From: Escherichia coli
GTDB taxonomy: Bacteria > Pseudomonadota > Gammaproteobacteria > Enterobacterales > Enterobacteriaceae
Strand: one strand, 5' to 3'
NCBI RefSeq assembly: GCF_048403405.1
Contig: NZ_CP183129.1
DNA: 64,000 nt
Shown: in pieces, positions 29,715 to 37,362 of the stretch
Numbering within the stretch: the first letter of the stretch is position 1
How the letters are laid out: each line of letters starts with the position of its first letter
Program-made: the position numbers and the translations under genes
Notes under the pieces: generated by a model
Seen by the model: the letters and a program-made list of their open reading frames with translations, nothing else
What the model was told of the DNA's origin: nothing
The model's database searches: none

Positions 29715-30448
29715 AAAATGTTATCTGGAGTGGTCTGAATTCTACTAACTTAGTTTTTTCAGACCGCTTCTGACCACAATGGCCTGTGAGGTTCTGCTGC
29801 TAGTCAACATAAAATAACAAAGCCGGCAGGTGGTGGTTGTTGTAAAGTTATTCAATGACATTCATGGAGGCTTAAGCGAATTATTTGTCCCTGGTCGGTA
29901 TGGTGGCAACAGCTTGTTGCGAGAATTTGGCTAATTTGGACTGACTTCCGCTCCTTGCTCAAAGCGGACTAGAAGGTTAGCTTGTGTCGGACTTTGCGTA
30001 TTAAAAGAAGTGCTGGTGGTGACTAGTGGTTGAGCCCCATTTCCACAGAAAAAATCAGAGAAACTATACCCAATAGTTGTATTGAATCACTGACGAGACA
30101 GCCTCATATTCATCAGGACTGGTGTACGTCCAATACAGGAGGTTGTGGTGCTGGTTCTCAAATGTGCGCTGGCTATTACGGCTGTAATGGCGATTTATTG
30201 TCTTGCTATTGTTCTTATGGATCGCCTTTCTGACTGATTTCATATTGGCGAGGTAAAGGTAGTTAAGTAGAATGGCTGCGGGTGCTTGAGGCTATCTGCC
30301 TCGGGCATGAACACCAAAGGCAGATAGAGAAAAGCCCCAGTTAACATTACGCGTCCTGCAAGACGCTTAACATTAATCTGAGGCCAATTTCATGCTAGAC
30401 ACATGTAGGTTAGCCTCTTACGTGCCGGAAGGCAAGGAGAAGCAGGCT

Positions 30449-30604
30449 ATGAAGCAGCAAAAGGCGATGTTAATCGCCCTGATCGTCATCTGTTTAACCG
30501 TCATAGTGACGGCACTGGTAACGAGGAAAGACCTCTGCGAGGTACGAATCCGAACCGGCCAGACGGAGGTCGCTGTCTTCACAGCTTACGAACCTGAGGA
30601 GTAA
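30449..30604 (+). CDS. hokD: Hok/Gef-family membrane toxin (type I toxin)
   Basis: 51 aa, MKQQKAMLIALIVICLTVIVTALVTRKDLCEVRIRTGQTEVAVFTAYEPEE; embedded in a longer mok-like upstream ORF (30392..). Confidence 0.85.
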   Translation: MKQQKAMLIALIVICLTVIVTALVTRKDLCEVRIRTGQTEVAVFTAYEPEE

Positions 30605-30672
30605 GAGACCCGGCGAGGGAGAAATCCCTCGCCACCTCTGATGTGGCAGGCATCCTCAACGCACCCGCACTT

Positions 30673-30699
30673 AACCCGCTTCGGCGGGTTTTTGTTTTT
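30673..30699 (+). terminator. intrinsic terminator downstream of hok
   Basis: AACCCGCTTCGGCGGGTT hairpin followed by TTTTGTTTTT. Confidence 0.7.
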
Positions 30700-30820
30700 A
30701 TTTTCAACGCGTTTGAAGTTCTGGACGGTGCCGGAATAGAATCAAAAATACTTAAGTAGCGCGCAGGGATAAGAGGGATGGTCCCTTAAAGGGGAGAGCT
30801 AATTATCCGGAAGAATTCTG

Positions 30821-31072
30821 ATGATGAACATCGAAGAACTGCGTAAAATTTTTTGTGAAGATGGCCTCTATGCTGTGTGCGTTGAAAATGGAAATCTTGT
30901 TAGTCATTACCGCATTATGTGTTTGCGAAAGAATGGGGCTGCGTTAATTAATTTTGTGGATGGTCGAGTGACAGACGGATTTATCTTGCGCGAAGGTGAG
31001 TTTGTCACTTCATTACAGGCACTGAAAGAGATCGGAATAAAAGCAGGCTTTTCAGCTTTTGCAGAAGAATAA
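30821..31072 (+). CDS. hypothetical 83-aa protein (position and length of Qin rem)
   Basis: 83-aa ORF with RBS; between hok and the DUF968 gene, as rem is in Qin. Confidence 0.5.
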   Translation: MMNIEELRKIFCEDGLYAVCVENGNLVSHYRIMCLRKNGAALINFVDGRVTDGFILREGEFVTSLQALKEIGIKAGFSAFAEE

Positions 31073-31138
31073 ACTCATCTACAATCTTGCGCGGGGCTGA
31101 ACTCCCGCTGAGTAACACCGTGCCACCGGAGAAAACCG

Positions 31139-31417
31139 ATGGCACGCAACGTAAAATATTACAATTCTGATAATTCGCCCGTTCTTGCCTGCACGCACGG
31201 GCGGTATTCTCACGCATTCAAGTCTGAATGGTTCCAGCACCCTCCATGCACTGCAGAACAGGCCGAATGGCTGATTCATTCTTACCGCAGGCGCGGGTTC
31301 GAGGTTAAGAAAGCTCTCAGTCTCGACTATCGGCACTGGATAATCTCTGTCAGGCTGCCTTATTCCGAACGCCCACCACGTGCGTCCCGCACTTTCCAGC
31401 AACGGATCTGGAGGTAA
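31139..31417 (+). CDS. hypothetical protein
   Basis: 92-aa ORF with GGAG RBS; its stop abuts the GTG start of the next gene. Confidence 0.5.
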   Translation: MARNVKYYNSDNSPVLACTHGRYSHAFKSEWFQHPPCTAEQAEWLIHSYRRRGFEVKKALSLDYRHWIISVRLPYSERPPRASRTFQQRIWR

Positions 31418-31418
31418 C

Positions 31419-32468
31419 GTGCGGGTATTACTTAGACCTGTTCTGGTGCCTGAGCTTGGGCTGGTGGTCCTTAAGCCGGGCCGTGAATCCATACAGATAT
31501 TTCATAATCCTCGAGTGCTGGTGGAACCGGAACCAAAAAGCATGCGTAATCTGCCATCCGGAGTCGTTCCTGCCGTTCGCCAGCCGCTGGCGGAAGACAA
31601 AACATTGCTGCCGTTTTTTAGTAACGAACGGGTGATTCGTGCTGCTGGCGGCGTTGGCGCATTGTCTGACTGGCTATTACGTCATGTTACATCCTGCCAG
31701 TGGCCTAATGGCGATTACCATCACACTGAAACAGTCATTCACCGTTATGGTACCGGCGCAATGGTGTTGTGCTGGCACTGCGACAACCAACTGCGTGACC
31801 AGACATCGGAATCACTGGAGCTGCTTGCTCAACAAAATCTGACAGCATGGGTGATTGACGTCATCCGTCACGCAATAAGCGGTACGCAGGAGCGGGAATT
31901 ATCTTTGGCTGAATTATCCTGGTGGGCGGTCTGCAATCAGGTGGTGGATGCACTACCTGAGGCTGTATCGCGTCGTTCGCTGGGATTACCAGCGGAAAAA
32001 ATCTGCTCGGTGTACCGCGAAAGCGACATCGTACCGGGAGAGCAGACCGCCACCAGCATATTGAAACAACGCACAAAAAATCTTGCACCGTTGCCTTACG
32101 CCCACCAGCAACAAAAACCACCACAGGAAAAGACGGTGGTAAGCATCAACGTTGATCCAGAGTCTCCGGAATCTTTCATGAAGCTGCCTAAACGTCGCCG
32201 CTGGGTTAAGGAGAAATACACTCGTTGGGTTAAGACACAGCCGTGTGCTTGCTGCGGTATGCCAGCCGACGATCCGCATCATCTGATTGGTCACGGGCAG
32301 GGCGGAATGGGAACAAAAGCACATGATCTCTTTGTGTTGCCTTTGTGCAGAAAGCATCACAACGAGCTGCATACGGATACAGTGGCATTTGAAGAGAAGT
32401 ATGGCTCCCAACTGGAGCTGATATTTCGTTTTATCGATCGCGCGCTGGCAACTGGCGTACTGGCGTAA
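31419..32468 (+). CDS. DUF968-family protein with HNH-like motif (YdfU-like)
   Basis: 349 aa from a GTG start with GGAGG RBS; C-terminal CACCGMPADDPHHLIGHG...CRKHHNELH Zn/HNH-like motif; located just upstream of Q. Confidence 0.7.
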   Translation: MRVLLRPVLVPELGLVVLKPGRESIQIFHNPRVLVEPEPKSMRNLPSGVVPAVRQPLAEDKTLLPFFSNERVIRAAGGVGALSDWLLRHVTSCQWPNGDYHHTETVIHRYGTGAMVLCWHCDNQLRDQTSESLELLAQQNLTAWVIDVIRHAISGTQERELSLAELSWWAVCNQVVDALPEAVSRRSLGLPAEKICSVYRESDIVPGEQTATSILKQRTKNLAPLPYAHQQQKPPQEKTVVSINVDPESPESFMKLPKRRRWVKEKYTRWVKTQPCACCGMPADDPHHLIGHGQGGMGTKAHDLFVLPLCRKHHNELHTDTVAFEEKYGSQLELIFRFIDRALATGVLA

Positions 32469-32481
32469 GTGGAGAACGAGC

Positions 32482-33234
32482 ATGAACCTTGAAGCCTTAC
32501 CAAAATATTACTCCCCAAAATCTCTAAAATTGAGCGATGACGCTCCAGCGACAGGCACCGGTTGTTTAACAATTACGGATGTAATGGCAGCGCAGGGGAT
32601 GGTGCAGTCGAAAGCACCACTTGGGTTGGCCTTATTTCTGGCAAAAGTTGGTGTTCAGGACCCTCAGTTTGCGATTGAAGGCCTGCTAAATTACGCGATG
32701 GCACTGGATAACCCGACATTGAACAAATTGAGTGAAGAAAGCCGGTTACAGATTATTCCTTACCTCGTGAATTTTGCCTTTGCTGATTACTCCAGGTCTG
32801 CGGCAAGTAAGGCTCGCTGTGAGCATTGTTCAGGTACGGGATTTTATAATGTATTGCGCGAAGTGGTGAAACACTACAGACGCGGGGAATCTGTAATCAA
32901 GGAAGAATGGGTAAAGGAACTATGTCAGCATTGCCATGGTAAGGGCGAAGTCAGCACAGCGTGCAGAGGGTGTAAGGGTAAAGGGATTGTTCTGGATGAA
33001 AAAAGAACCCGGTTTCATGGCGTACCGGTATATAAGATTTGTGGGCGTTGTAATGGAAACCGGTTTAGTCGTTTACCGACCACGCTGGCACGACGTCATG
33101 TCCAGAAGCTGGTACCAGACCTGACCGATTATCAGTGGTATAAGGGGTATGCGGACGTCATTGATAAACTGGTAACAAAGTGCTGGCAGGAAGAAGCATA
33201 CGCGGAAGCGCAATTGAGGAAGGTGACGAGATAA
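32482..33234 (+). CDS. late-gene antitermination protein Q
   Basis: 250 aa; zinc-binding CxxC clusters ([34 protein letters not shown]) typical of Q antiterminators. Confidence 0.8.
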
Positions 33235-33341
33235 ATGATTTTTGCTGAAGATGGCGACATGATGTTTGCATTTTTCAAAAAACATGGATAAGATTTTCTC
33301 AACGATGGGCTTTGTGTATCCGACGTTTAGAAAAAAGTAGA

Positions 33342-33367
33342 AAACCCGCTTATAAGCGGGTTTTTGT
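33342..33367 (+). terminator. intrinsic terminator (tR'-like) about 110 bp downstream of Q
   Basis: AAACCCGCT-TATA-AGCGGGTTT hairpin plus T tract. Confidence 0.6.
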
Positions 33368-33404
33368 GCTTTAAATGGGGCAATAGAGATATTGAATCTC
33401 ATCC

Positions 33405-33589
33405 CGGGATAAACATTGGCAGTTGAAGGTCCACGCGAACCATTTATCCGGCAAAATTCCACGCGTAATCCTGTGGTAATTTCTTCTGCATCTCGAAGAT
33501 TGAGAGCTGAAACGTGAAGCTGGGCATCGATACGCCATCGGATGGGAATATAAGACCTTTGCTGCTTTTGTAGTCAAAGTTTTTGACAA
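33405..33589 (-). pseudogene. degraded cold-shock protein gene (cspF-like remnant)
   Basis: Minus-strand frame encodes ...[42 protein letters not shown] (Csp C-terminal half) but the N-terminus is in another frame and no stop follows the expected end. Confidence 0.5.
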
Positions 33590-33909
33590 TTCCTGTCATT
33601 TTAGGGGACAGAAAAACTCCTTAATACTGATAACCTGGTGCACCATACACACGTTCCTGGAGAAAACTACTTTTTTGATAGGGTTGAAGGTGGCTGGATG
33701 TCTAAAATAAACATTGCTTCATATGTTCAACTATGAGTTAATGACTGCGTCGGTTTGAAGAACAGACGATATACGAAGTAGTTTACTAAAGCAGTTCTCA
33801 TTTCAGGTGTTATTCACTTATTCCTTCTTTGAGTCTCTCCAATTAAGTACGAAGTCGTTTCTGTTATGCAAACCATTTATGCCGAAAGGCTCAAGTTAAG
33901 GAATGTAGA

Positions 33910-34125
33910 ATGTCAAATAAAATGACTGGTTTAGTAAAATGGTTTAACGCTGATAAAGGTTTCGGCTTTATTTCTCCTGTTGATGGTAGTAAAGATGTGT
34001 TTGTGCATTTTTCTGCGATTCAGAATGATAATTATCGAACCTTATTTGAAGGTCAAAAGGTTACCTTCTCTATAGAGAGTGGTGCTAAAGGTCCTGCAGC
34101 AGCAAATGTCATCATTACTGATTAA
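33910..34125 (+). CDS. cspB: cold-shock protein (CspA family)
   Basis: 71 aa, [38 protein letters not shown]... with RNP1/RNP2 motifs; long 5' leader typical of csp genes. Confidence 0.8.
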
Positions 34126-34406
34126 AATTCATCGCTCGTCTGTATACGATAACGAAGAAGGCTGATGCCTGAGTAGAGATACGGACAGAGTAGTGAATAT
34201 TGGATCTCTTTAATAAAAAGTAAGGAGGTCCAATACATGAAACAATGGCCAGCATATTTGGCAAAATCTTAATCAGGAAAAGTATGCTAACCATTGTGGT
34301 GAAGTGCAGGTTTGCTGCATGAATAGTTTCACAGCAGAAGCTAACTGCTGGCATCGCAAAACAAAGTGCGTAAGTGGATGACTCCCACAAAAAGCACCAC
34401 AATCTC

Positions 34407-34430
34407 AAACCCGCTCAGGCGGGTTTTTTA
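34407..34430 (+). terminator. intrinsic terminator downstream of the csp gene
   Basis: AAACCCGC-TCAG-GCGGGTTT followed by TTTTTATT. Confidence 0.7.
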
Positions 34431-34488
34431 TTATCTGCTTTAAATATATTATTAAAATATAAAAAATACTTGTTACTAATAAAATCAA

Positions 34489-34659
34489 TCAGGCTACAGC
34501 TTTAAGATTTGTCTGGAATACTTTGTTGCAATGAGGGCAGATCAAAAGGGCACCTTTTTGTACTCTTGAAAAACTGTGTTCTGACTCTTGGGTGCAGTTT
34601 GGGCAGGAACATTTAACGAGATAATTACGGCGTGATTTTGAGTCTTTACGTTCTGACAT
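34489..34659 (-). CDS. small C4 zinc-ribbon protein
   Basis: 56 aa from MSERKDSKSRRNYLVKCSCPNCTQESEHSFSRVQKGALLICPHCNKVFQTNLKAVA; strong RBS (AGGAAAAG) before this Met. Confidence 0.5.
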   Translation of the reverse strand: MSERKDSKSRRNYLVKCSCPNCTQESEHSFSRVQKGALLICPHCNKVFQTNLKAVA

Positions 34660-34878
34660 AGGCTTTTCCTGTATAAATGGCCGTATACAGTACACTAAAT
34701 ATGAAAACATTTCTCGTATTATTATTTTATATGTGACTTTCTTTCAAAATAATTACCCACATTTTTAATGTGTATGTTTTTTTAGCGCCGTTGAGAACAA
34801 CGTGTGCTGTCAAAACTACCCCGTAGACTCCGATCTTTTCAAACATATTGCACCATCCGTGTACATCGGGGTGAGGAT

Positions 34879-35094
34879 ATGAAATCAATGGATAAGTTAA
34901 CAACAGGTGTTGCCTATGGCACATCGGCGGGTAATGCTGGTTTCTGGGCATTGCAGTTACTCGATAAAGTAACTCCGTCACAGTGGGCTGCAATCGGTGT
35001 GCTGGGTAGCCTGGTTTTTGGCCTGCTGACGTATCTGACAAATCTTTATTTCAAGATTAAAGAAGACAGGCGTAAGGCTGCGAGAGGAGAGTAA
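34879..35094 (+). CDS. essQ: class II pinholin (phage 21 S-like) with dual-start motif
   Basis: [71 protein letters not shown]; two TM helices; Met1/Met4 dual start. Confidence 0.85.
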
Positions 35095-35098
35095 TCCA

Positions 35099-35650
35099 AT
35101 GACTCAAGACTATGAACTGGTTGTGAAAGGAGTCCGTAATTTTGAGAATAAAGTTACGGTAACTGTAGCCTTACGGGACAAAAAACACTTTGACGGTGAA
35201 ATTTTTGACCTGGACATCTCGCTGGACCGTGTTGAAGGTGCCGCGCTGGAGTTTTATGAGGCAGCAGCCAGAAGGAGCATCAGACAGGTCTTCCTGGATG
35301 TTGCTGCCGGGTTATGTGAAGGGGATGAGCAGTCGCCGGAAAAGCGCCCCATAATTTTAGAGGCGCAGAATGTGTGGATAACCTACAAAGGAAAGCTACC
35401 GGGAAGAATTACTGGTTCTCTGAAGACGCCACCGACGGCATTGCGGTCAGAAAAAGATGATATTGAATCGCCCATTGAAAAACTGGAGGGCAGCGTCGCT
35501 GATCTGAATAAAAAATTGTCGGTGCTGATTCCTTCTGAAGATGAAAAAAAACGCCGCGATGAGCAGTTTGCGGCGTTTTACGATTATTGCATTGAAGTTA
35601 CTCGCAGGAATTTTGTGAAGATTTTTGAGGAGGGTAAATCTCTTCAGTAA
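35099..35650 (+). CDS. hypothetical protein inserted between holin and endolysin
   Basis: 183-aa ORF with GAGGAG RBS directly after the holin stop; no recognisable motif. Confidence 0.55.
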   Translation: MTQDYELVVKGVRNFENKVTVTVALRDKKHFDGEIFDLDISLDRVEGAALEFYEAAARRSIRQVFLDVAAGLCEGDEQSPEKRPIILEAQNVWITYKGKLPGRITGSLKTPPTALRSEKDDIESPIEKLEGSVADLNKKLSVLIPSEDEKKRRDEQFAAFYDYCIEVTRRNFVKIFEEGKSLQ

Positions 35651-35858
35651 GCTTATTGGCGGACGCTGCAATTAATTCAGGAAGGTCCGCAAGGTCATCT
35701 GTCAGTGGATATGATGAAAAATCGGCGGCAGTTCTGTTAAGAAGCGCTTTAACTAATTCCTTTTCCTTCTCCGGCAACAAGTTGATTAGAGCTACGACTG
35801 CTTGCCTGAGTGCGATTAAATCAGCAAAAGTTTGTTTAGGTAGATTTGTGTAATCCAT
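35598..35858 (-). CDS. hypothetical protein, convergent to the lysis operon
   Basis: 86-aa ORF with GAGG RBS 8 nt upstream of its ATG; helical, acidic; overlaps the previous gene's 3' end by 53 nt. Confidence 0.45.
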   Translation of the reverse strand: MDYTNLPKQTFADLIALRQAVVALINLLPEKEKELVKALLNRTAADFSSYPLTDDLADLPELIAASANKLTEEIYPPQKSSQNSCE

Positions 35859-35971
35859 AGTCGCCTCTGTGTTTATCAGATTGACATCCTCCTCCCGCCA
35901 GTGCCCATCACTGGTGAGGTAAGATTTAACATATCCGGGGATTTGAAGCCGATAAATCCTGATAAATATCC

Positions 35972-36999
<1,028 letters not shown>

Positions 37000-37362
37000 A
37001 TTAATATTAAATCGGATTATTTTTAGCGCTGAATGTGAAATTTAAATAAAAAGGACTCTTCCATGAGTCAAAATCCTTGAAATCTTAAGGGTAAGATAAA
37101 AGGTCATTAGACAGAATGACACGTTTTATTAATAAATAAAGCTATTGTTTCATTCGTGTGTTTTTCTTTACAAAAGTAATCCTTGCTATGGTTGGTTAAT
37201 CATGCGTTAATGGTGTTCTGGTTTGTTACAAAATTATCTGAAGCAGTCATTGTTATAATTTTATTATTTGTACCTCTTGAGATTTCCTTGTTGGTTTTTC
37301 TCTCTGATATTTTTTTTCGGACCATTCTGCCCAAGGGCTAACTTCTTCAAAAGGTAATAATG

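Follow-up and report, generated by a model that had tools for sequence, protein, structure and literature searches.

Prophage setting and the Q gene

The window (the whole 64-kb stretch of DNA that was analysed) carries a lambdoid E. coli prophage that resembles Qin. The genes that frame the interval of interest, between the Q gene and the lysis genes, are:

30280-30604: hokD/sok, followed by rem, ydfU (DUF968) and the Q gene, in this order towards the cassette described below
32482-33234, + strand: Q antiterminator gene of the ydfT/quuQ type, 250 aa (Pfam PF03589, E 1e-54)
33409-33611, - strand: remnant of cspF, a pseudogene
33910-34125, + strand: cspB, between the terminator and the lysis genes
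34804-36999, + strand: holin (P21-type), ydfR-like ORF, endolysin (lysozyme) and spanin (Pfam/PHROG), the first late genes and putative targets of Q
from there to about 61 kb, + strand: genes for small and large terminase, portal, head protease/capsid, tape measure, J and tail fibre (Pfam/PHROG)

The Q protein matches the structures of λ Q (7ubm, E 9e-36 by phmmer; 4mo1, E 7e-25) and PHROG 127, "anti-termination protein Q-like" (2e-106). Its identity is 98% to K-12 YdfT, 95% to SfV Q, 41% to λ Q and 39% to φ80 Q. Pfam PF03589 represents the Qλ family, whereas Q21 and Q82 belong to PF06530 and PF06323, respectively (PMC9388147). The only Pfam matches of the protein are PF03589 and a DnaJ zinc-finger domain, and its structure matches are likewise to λ Q. 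By these matches it is a member of the Qλ family, and cassettes of the Q21 and Q82 types were rejected. The zinc-ribbon DNA-binding arm carries an insertion of about 43 aa relative to λ Q and has four CxxC motifs, two of them extra relative to λ; the insertion region is the source of the DnaJ match (DnaJ_CXXCXGXG). A comparable long arm with extra cysteines occurs in φ80 Q. Given the insertion, the geometry of DNA binding, or the reach to the DNA site, may differ from that of λ Q.

The late operon is complete, about 27 kb long and on the same strand as Q, and its lysis, terminase, portal, capsid and tail genes are long intact ORFs. Thus, Q occupies its canonical position. The order of Q, cspB (33910-34125) and the holin, endolysin and spanin genes (34804-36999) agrees with the sequence-only reading, which had placed a strong hairpin ahead of the csp and lysis genes.

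Several features of the flanking genes are recorded here. The cspF remnant carries a frameshift, and a deletion of about 258 bp relative to K-12 Qin and phage 2H10 (junction 33410/33411) has removed its stop codon. The deletion also takes out ynfS and lies 40 bp past the terminator described below; the identical junction is present in phage Tritos. A strong Rfam match to the cspA thermoregulator 5' UTR (158.8 bits; 33749-34141, + strand) spans the leader and gene of cspB; by this match, cspB has its own cold-inducible promoter and leader within the late transcription unit. The gene ynfU follows on the - strand, convergent with cspB, and the hairpin between the two (34407-34432, AAACCCGCTCAGGCGGGTTT plus a T run) looks like a bidirectional terminator. 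In the lysis cassette, the ydfR-like ORF has 183 aa compared with 103 aa in K-12 (35099-35858 region), and an additional ORF of 86 aa on the - strand (35598-35858) precedes the lysozyme gene. This suggests an insertion relative to K-12 and to E. coli strain AMSCJX02. Just downstream of hokD/sok there is a sub-threshold Rfam match to isrK (30613-30694, + strand; 25.7 bits, E 0.019, gathering score 50). At its end is a hairpin that looks like a terminator (30667-30695). In Salmonella Gifsy-1, IsrK is a prophage sRNA linked to antitermination.

Candidate promoter, putative pause element and terminator after Q

The sequence-only reading had noted a strong hairpin with a T tract (33342-33367) about 110 bp after Q. 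We confirmed it at this place: the stem extends from A33341 to T33364 and starts 107 bp past the Q stop, which ends at 33234. The stem has 10 pairs, with a G+C core of CCCGCT/AGCGGG at 33345-33360 and a TATA loop. The first four bases of the T run at 33361-33365 (33361-33364) close the stem, and the T-rich tail ends at 33372. A 76-nt stretch containing the hairpin (33300-33375) folds at -24 kcal/mol, compared with -13.9 ± 2.8 for dinucleotide shuffles (z -3.6), and one shuffle in 200 does as well. For the opposite strand of this stretch, z is -5.1 and none of 200 shuffles is as good. A consensus terminator scan also reported its site on the - strand, with the tail CTACTTTTTT, because the stem is extended through A/T pairs. 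Comparable sites with a hairpin and T run number 22 on the + strand of the window in a custom scan, about one per 2.9 kb, so the chance of encountering one within about 140 bp after Q is roughly 5%. On its own the hairpin is therefore suggestive rather than decisive, and the weight of the argument comes from conservation and from the other elements of the cassette:

33266-33271, + strand: candidate PR' -35 hexamer, TTGCAT; invariant in 29 of 29 cassette variants, the same as the annotated φ80 pR' -35, and aligned with λ TTGACT
33272-33288, + strand: 17-bp spacer, TTTTCAAAAAACATGGA, the putative Q-binding element (QBE); near-invariant in the 29 variants
33289-33294, + strand: candidate PR' -10 hexamer, TAAGAT; aligned with λ TAAATT and φ80 TAGATT
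33301-33309, + strand: predicted +1 (A33301) and putative σ70-dependent pause element, AACGAT plus GGG, AACGATGGG; identical to +1 to +9 of λ PR'
33341-33372 (+41 to +72), + strand: tR'-like intrinsic terminator; the hairpin occupies 33341-33364 and TTTTTGTGCTTT comes next; supported by fold, conservation and a K-12 3' end
33301-33369, + strand: predicted short leader RNA of about 69 nt, made without Q; C33369 is the equivalent of the K-12 3' end, and the 5' end is predicted

The candidate σ70 promoter, TTGCAT-17 bp-TAAGAT, begins 32 bp past the Q stop. Six bases (TTTCTC) lie between the -10 hexamer and AACGATGGG, which puts AACGAT at the same distance from the -10 as in λ. The nine-base element occurs once in the window, or once in 128 kb when both strands are counted. 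In λ, the first A of AACGAT is +1, and AACGAT is a -10-like element that σ70 rebinds (PMC5001585). The λ pause at +16/+17 is stabilised by the GGG at +7 to +9, which resembles a discriminator (Bird et al. 2016, PMC5001585). By homology with λ, we predict a transcription start at about A33301. Y-G steps are found here at +13/+14 and +15/+16, and conservation reaches +14; the sequence near the expected pause position is unlike that of λ, so the pause site is uncertain. A phage 82-type cassette was also considered and rejected: in phage 82 the pause is further downstream (+25), whereas here the pause element begins at +1, as in λ (PMC5001585).

The QBE lies between the -35 and -10 elements in λ (PMC9388147) and, according to the record annotation, in φ80. 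Position and conservation point to the spacer at 33272-33288 as a candidate Q-binding site.

Matches to the σ70 consensus are 3 of 6 for the -35 and 4 of 6 for the -10. With this total of 7 of 12, the site at 33266-33294 was not called by the consensus promoter scan. The annotated pR' of φ80 is no better by this measure, and we retained PR' as a promoter on homology rather than on consensus score.

Conservation of the cassette and RNA ends in K-12

A search for close relatives of the locus gave only sequences of at least 95% identity, and divergent cassettes were found by tblastn against phage genomes. The cassette set comprises 81 sequences (76 IMG/VR loci, four phage records and K-12), which reduce to 29 distinct versions of the 150 bp that follow Q. 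All 29 have TTGCAT, the near-invariant 17-bp spacer, TA[AG][AG]AT and AACGATGG, with one exception in the pause hexamer: the pause element is conserved in 28 variants and the remaining one reads AATGAT. A hairpin and U tract at +40 to +63 from the predicted start are present in every variant, and at least four different hairpin sequences occupy this position (CCCGCU/AGCGGG, CCUCGC/GCGGGG, ACCGC/GCGGU and forms with 6-nt loops). Each variant was folded on its own, as one of them is offset by a single column in the MAFFT alignment. Between about +15 and +40 the leader varies. A hairpin whose position is kept while its sequence is replaceable is the pattern expected under selection on the promoter, the pause or loading site, and the terminator.

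Similarity to SfV, mEp460, Ayreon, Salmonella phage 118970_sal3 and fifteen Stx2c phages begins at the start codon of Q and stops at 33365-33372, the end of the T tract. The DNA beyond is unrelated. Judged by these boundaries, the stretch from Q to the terminator moves as one unit among mosaic phages. Phage Tritos, a deposited genome of 46 kb, has the cassette of the window save for one base of the loop. Within E. coli, an 851-bp segment (33100-33950) is 100% identical in the chromosome of strain AMSCJX02 and is present essentially at full length in 1,461 of 5,426 complete genomes.

More distant phages retain the layout: in λ, P22 and φ80, as in the window, the -35 is followed by a 17-bp spacer, the -10, some 6 bp and then (T)AACGATGGG or a close form of it. 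In a multiple alignment with λ, P22, φ80, YeP3, Evi and SF10, TTG of the -35 and a TA...T form of the -10 are family-wide, and TGG just before the -10 is present in five of the seven aligned members. Most have (T)AACGATGGG, of which P22, φ80 and YeP3 have one-base variants. The cassette architecture is common to λ, P22, φ80 and other distant phages of the Qλ family (six of seven by an automatic check).

RNA ends mapped in K-12 bear directly on the terminator. In the curated MG1655 Term-seq data of Adams et al. 2021 (PMC7815308, supplementary file 1), a 3' end classed as "orphan" appears at 1642356 (-), on the Q-sense strand, under each of the three growth conditions. Its mean reads are 103,591 and 55,368 in two entries, apparently LB at OD 0.4 and 2.0 (PMC7815308). 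This position is the C of GUGC in ...GCGGGUUUUGUGC. The orthologous stem ends 8 nt before it, and the K-12 counterpart of the predicted +1 (1642422, -) lies 67 nt upstream. Thus, in vivo the orthologous hairpin terminates, or at least ends, an abundant RNA that runs in the direction from Q to the late genes.

Two other abundant Term-seq ends were seen in K-12 Qin. One, at 1641224/1641226 (-) (window about 34170-34240, + strand), has 6e5-1.2e6 reads and lies downstream of cspB and upstream of the cspB/ynfU terminator. It has no obvious hairpin and is possibly a processing product. The second, at NC_000913.3 1644572 (-), is an "orphan" end of about 5-6e4 reads, without annotation, in the rem-ydfU interval, upstream of ydfU; its equivalent in the window is at about 31130-31190.

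The better fold of the opposite strand (z -5.1), together with the scan call and its tail on that strand, could also mean that the hairpin is mainly, or additionally, the terminator of a convergent - strand cspF/ynfS unit, a bidirectional element and not a dedicated tR'. Ahead of the stem, Qin-type variants carry the A-rich run GAAAAAAGTAGAAAA; read on the - strand this is a U tract, and it is missing in variants without cspF; in the Qin-type variants the hairpin may therefore double as a cspF/ynfS terminator. The cspF remnant of the window also ends only about 45 bp from the hairpin. However, a hairpin is found at the same distance from Q in the cspF-less SfV, Ayreon, mEp460 and Stx2c phages, with a good U tract on the + strand only. 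In K-12 the hairpin is about 300 bp past the cspF stop and about 150 bp past ynfS, and no 3' end of the opposite strand is among the Term-seq entries at 164236x-164240x for any condition. The cspF gene of the window is itself a frameshifted, truncated pseudogene. We consider a bidirectional or mainly - strand terminator rather unlikely. Given the conservation without cspF, the lack of listed 3' ends for that strand in K-12 and the decay of cspF, a - strand role is at most secondary, and it is compatible with assignment of the hairpin as tR'.

A further alternative is that the hairpin simply ends the early-right transcript that includes Q, with no late promoter in 33235-33340 and a late start elsewhere, for example near the holin gene. 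The weak consensus match of PR', missed by the scan, would fit this. So would the K-12 start-site data: we found no 5' ends near 1642422 (older coordinate 1640446) in the Cappable-seq, SMRT-Cappable-seq and Kim 2012 supplements, and the K-12 3' end could thus stem partly from read-through of Q mRNA. There is also a σ70-like site (TTTATA-16-AATAAT, 9 of 12) at 34726-34753 (+), just upstream of the holin gene. This site lacks a pause element and lies in A+T-rich DNA, in a region that has five promoter-like sites compared with 7.5 in shuffles, and is probably a chance match. By contrast, identity to the nine-base λ pause element at exactly the λ distance from the -10, in a single occurrence per 128 kb, is improbable by chance. 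The promoter and pause block is present in 13 of 14 Qλ-family cassettes examined, and across the variants the -35 is invariant and the spacer nearly so, while the leader from +15 to +40 varies. A plain end of the Q transcript is, on this evidence, very improbable.

A probable λ-type late cassette and its possible roles

We conclude, with a probability of roughly 0.85, that the region is the PR'-qut-tR' late regulatory cassette of a Qin-like prophage, homologous to that of λ. The sequence-only reading had likewise proposed PR', qut and tR' at this place, and the proposal gains support from the λ-type elements recognised at the sequence level, in the expected order and spacing, and from the K-12 3' end. 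Of the features that define λ-type cassettes (PMC9388147), those identified are a Qλ-family gene upstream, a -10-like pause hexamer (at the sequence level), an intrinsic terminator, and late genes on the same strand; the promoter and the Q-binding element in its spacer are candidates. The conclusion is based on the elements themselves, their conservation, the homology with λ and φ80, and termination at the K-12 orthologue in vivo. From these we infer the start, the pause, the Q site and readthrough by Q.

The steps of the mechanism are drawn by homology with λ (PMC9388147, PMC5001585). RNA polymerase with σ70 would start at about A33301 from TTGCAT-17-TAAGAT. Region 2 of σ70 would then rebind the non-template AACGAT(GGG) at +1 to +9, and the complex would scrunch and pause in the mid-teens. 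Without Q, the polymerase is expected to escape and terminate at 33341-33372, yielding a leader of about 69 nt and leaving the lysis and morphogenesis genes silent. When Q is present, the 250-aa Qλ-family protein would bind the promoter spacer and engage the paused complex, with NusA as in λ. The modified polymerase would read through tR' and later terminators, among them that of cspB (34407-34432), and so transcribe the late operon of about 27 kb.

The cassette could instead be a relic, intact in sequence but not working here, for example with Q unexpressed or inactive and only the short RNA made constitutively. K-12 Qin is cryptic, the adjacent cspF has decayed, and the deletion of about 258 bp lies just 40 bp past the terminator. 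Against this, Q is full length and 95-98% identical to the Q of deposited phage genomes with the same cassette, and the downstream lysis, terminase, portal, capsid and tail genes are long intact ORFs. The Qin late region is also said to have rescued λ as the Q-independent hybrid λqin111, reportedly the basis on which Qin was originally defined, in work attributed to Espion et al. in 1983 (J Mol Biol 170:611; cited in PMC8835842). The 434B hybrid was considered as a Qin carrier and set aside, as it carries DLP12 instead. Overall, a non-working relic seems improbable.

The closest characterised relatives of the cassette are λ, with an identical pause element, and φ80, with an identical -35, a short leader and a long-arm Q. 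As in λ, a homologous Q gene (41%, E 9e-36) is followed directly by a promoter with a 17-bp spacer, +1 to +9 are AACGATGGG, an intrinsic terminator precedes the lysis genes, and the upstream region can be aligned (ATGATT...GATGGCRACAT). The λ PR' reads TTGACT, 17-bp spacer, TAAATT, TGACTC, AACGATGGG, compared with TTGCAT, 17 bp, TAAGAT, TTTCTC, AACGATGGG in the window. Unlike λ, whose leader (6S RNA) has 194 nt, the window has a predicted leader of about 69 nt. Six of the 17 spacer positions (the putative QBE) differ, the Q protein has the arm insertion of about 43 aa, and the interval from the terminator to the lysis genes contains csp moron genes.

For φ80 (gp17 is Q; NC_021190), the record annotates the pR' -35 and -10 with a Q-binding site in the spacer between them, and some 50 nt further on a terminator, the same layout as in the window. 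The -35 TTGCAT is identical, the 17-bp spacer ends in TGGA, the -10 is TAGATT and the pause element is TAACGCTGGG. The leader is similarly short, with a terminator hairpin at about +44 to +69. The Q proteins share 39% identity, and the pause hexamer is AACGCT in φ80 compared with AACGAT in the window. The upstream half of the spacer is TCGCGGA in φ80 (the annotated Q-binding site) and TTTCAAA in the window, which implies a different Q specificity.

The ydfT (quuQ)-cspF interval of K-12 Qin and SfV have the same cassette as the window: the promoter, the pause element and the place of the terminator correspond. K-12 Qin differs in its -10 (TAAAAT), one T fewer in the tract, and intact cspF and ynfS where the window has the deletion of about 258 bp. 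SfV has another loop, a longer T tract and unrelated downstream DNA.

The short transcript invites comparison with StxS, the short PR'-tR' RNA of Stx phages, which is an Hfq-dependent sRNA (PMC7547250). Those phages have another Q (144 aa) and a PR'-tR' interval of 258 nt, with processing to 74 nt, and the presence of StxS tracks the phylogeny of Q (PMC7547250). Shared with StxS would be a constitutive short transcript in lysogeny, from an antiterminated late promoter to its terminator, and the K-12 orthologue of the leader is abundant in Term-seq. The leader has an A-rich (ARN-like) stretch followed by the terminator and a U tail, and the "orphan" 3' end in K-12 has about 10^5 reads. The leader from +15 to +40 is poorly conserved among cassette variants, which argues against a family-wide sRNA role. 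A search of 30000-37000 against Rfam gave no known RNA family for the leader, only sub-threshold, terminator-driven matches (rnk_pseudo, 28 bits, gathering score 55; RsmY, 19 bits), and a literature search on quuQ/ydfT and small RNA returned nothing relevant. It is unlikely that the PR'-tR' leader of about 67-69 nt goes beyond a by-product of antitermination and is an abundant constitutive prophage sRNA acting in trans on host or phage mRNAs in the manner of StxS. If it were, K-12 and the roughly one quarter of E. coli genomes that have the cassette would gain a so far unannotated sRNA.

The cassette was previously unannotated, and its mechanism is textbook λ-type and unsurprising to a specialist. 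Among the records examined, none annotates the promoter or qut site: K-12 RefSeq has nothing, and the SfV and Ayreon records annotate only the hairpin, as a terminator. The value of the assignment lies mainly in annotation: it places the probable late promoter and pause/qut site, and tR', in a prophage cassette that is very common in E. coli and is present also in K-12 Qin, SfV, mEp460 and some Stx2c phages. It accounts for an abundant "orphan" 3' end in the K-12 Term-seq data. The cassette marks the point at which Q would control lysis; where Stx2c phages have this Q, expression of the toxin is probably controlled there as well.
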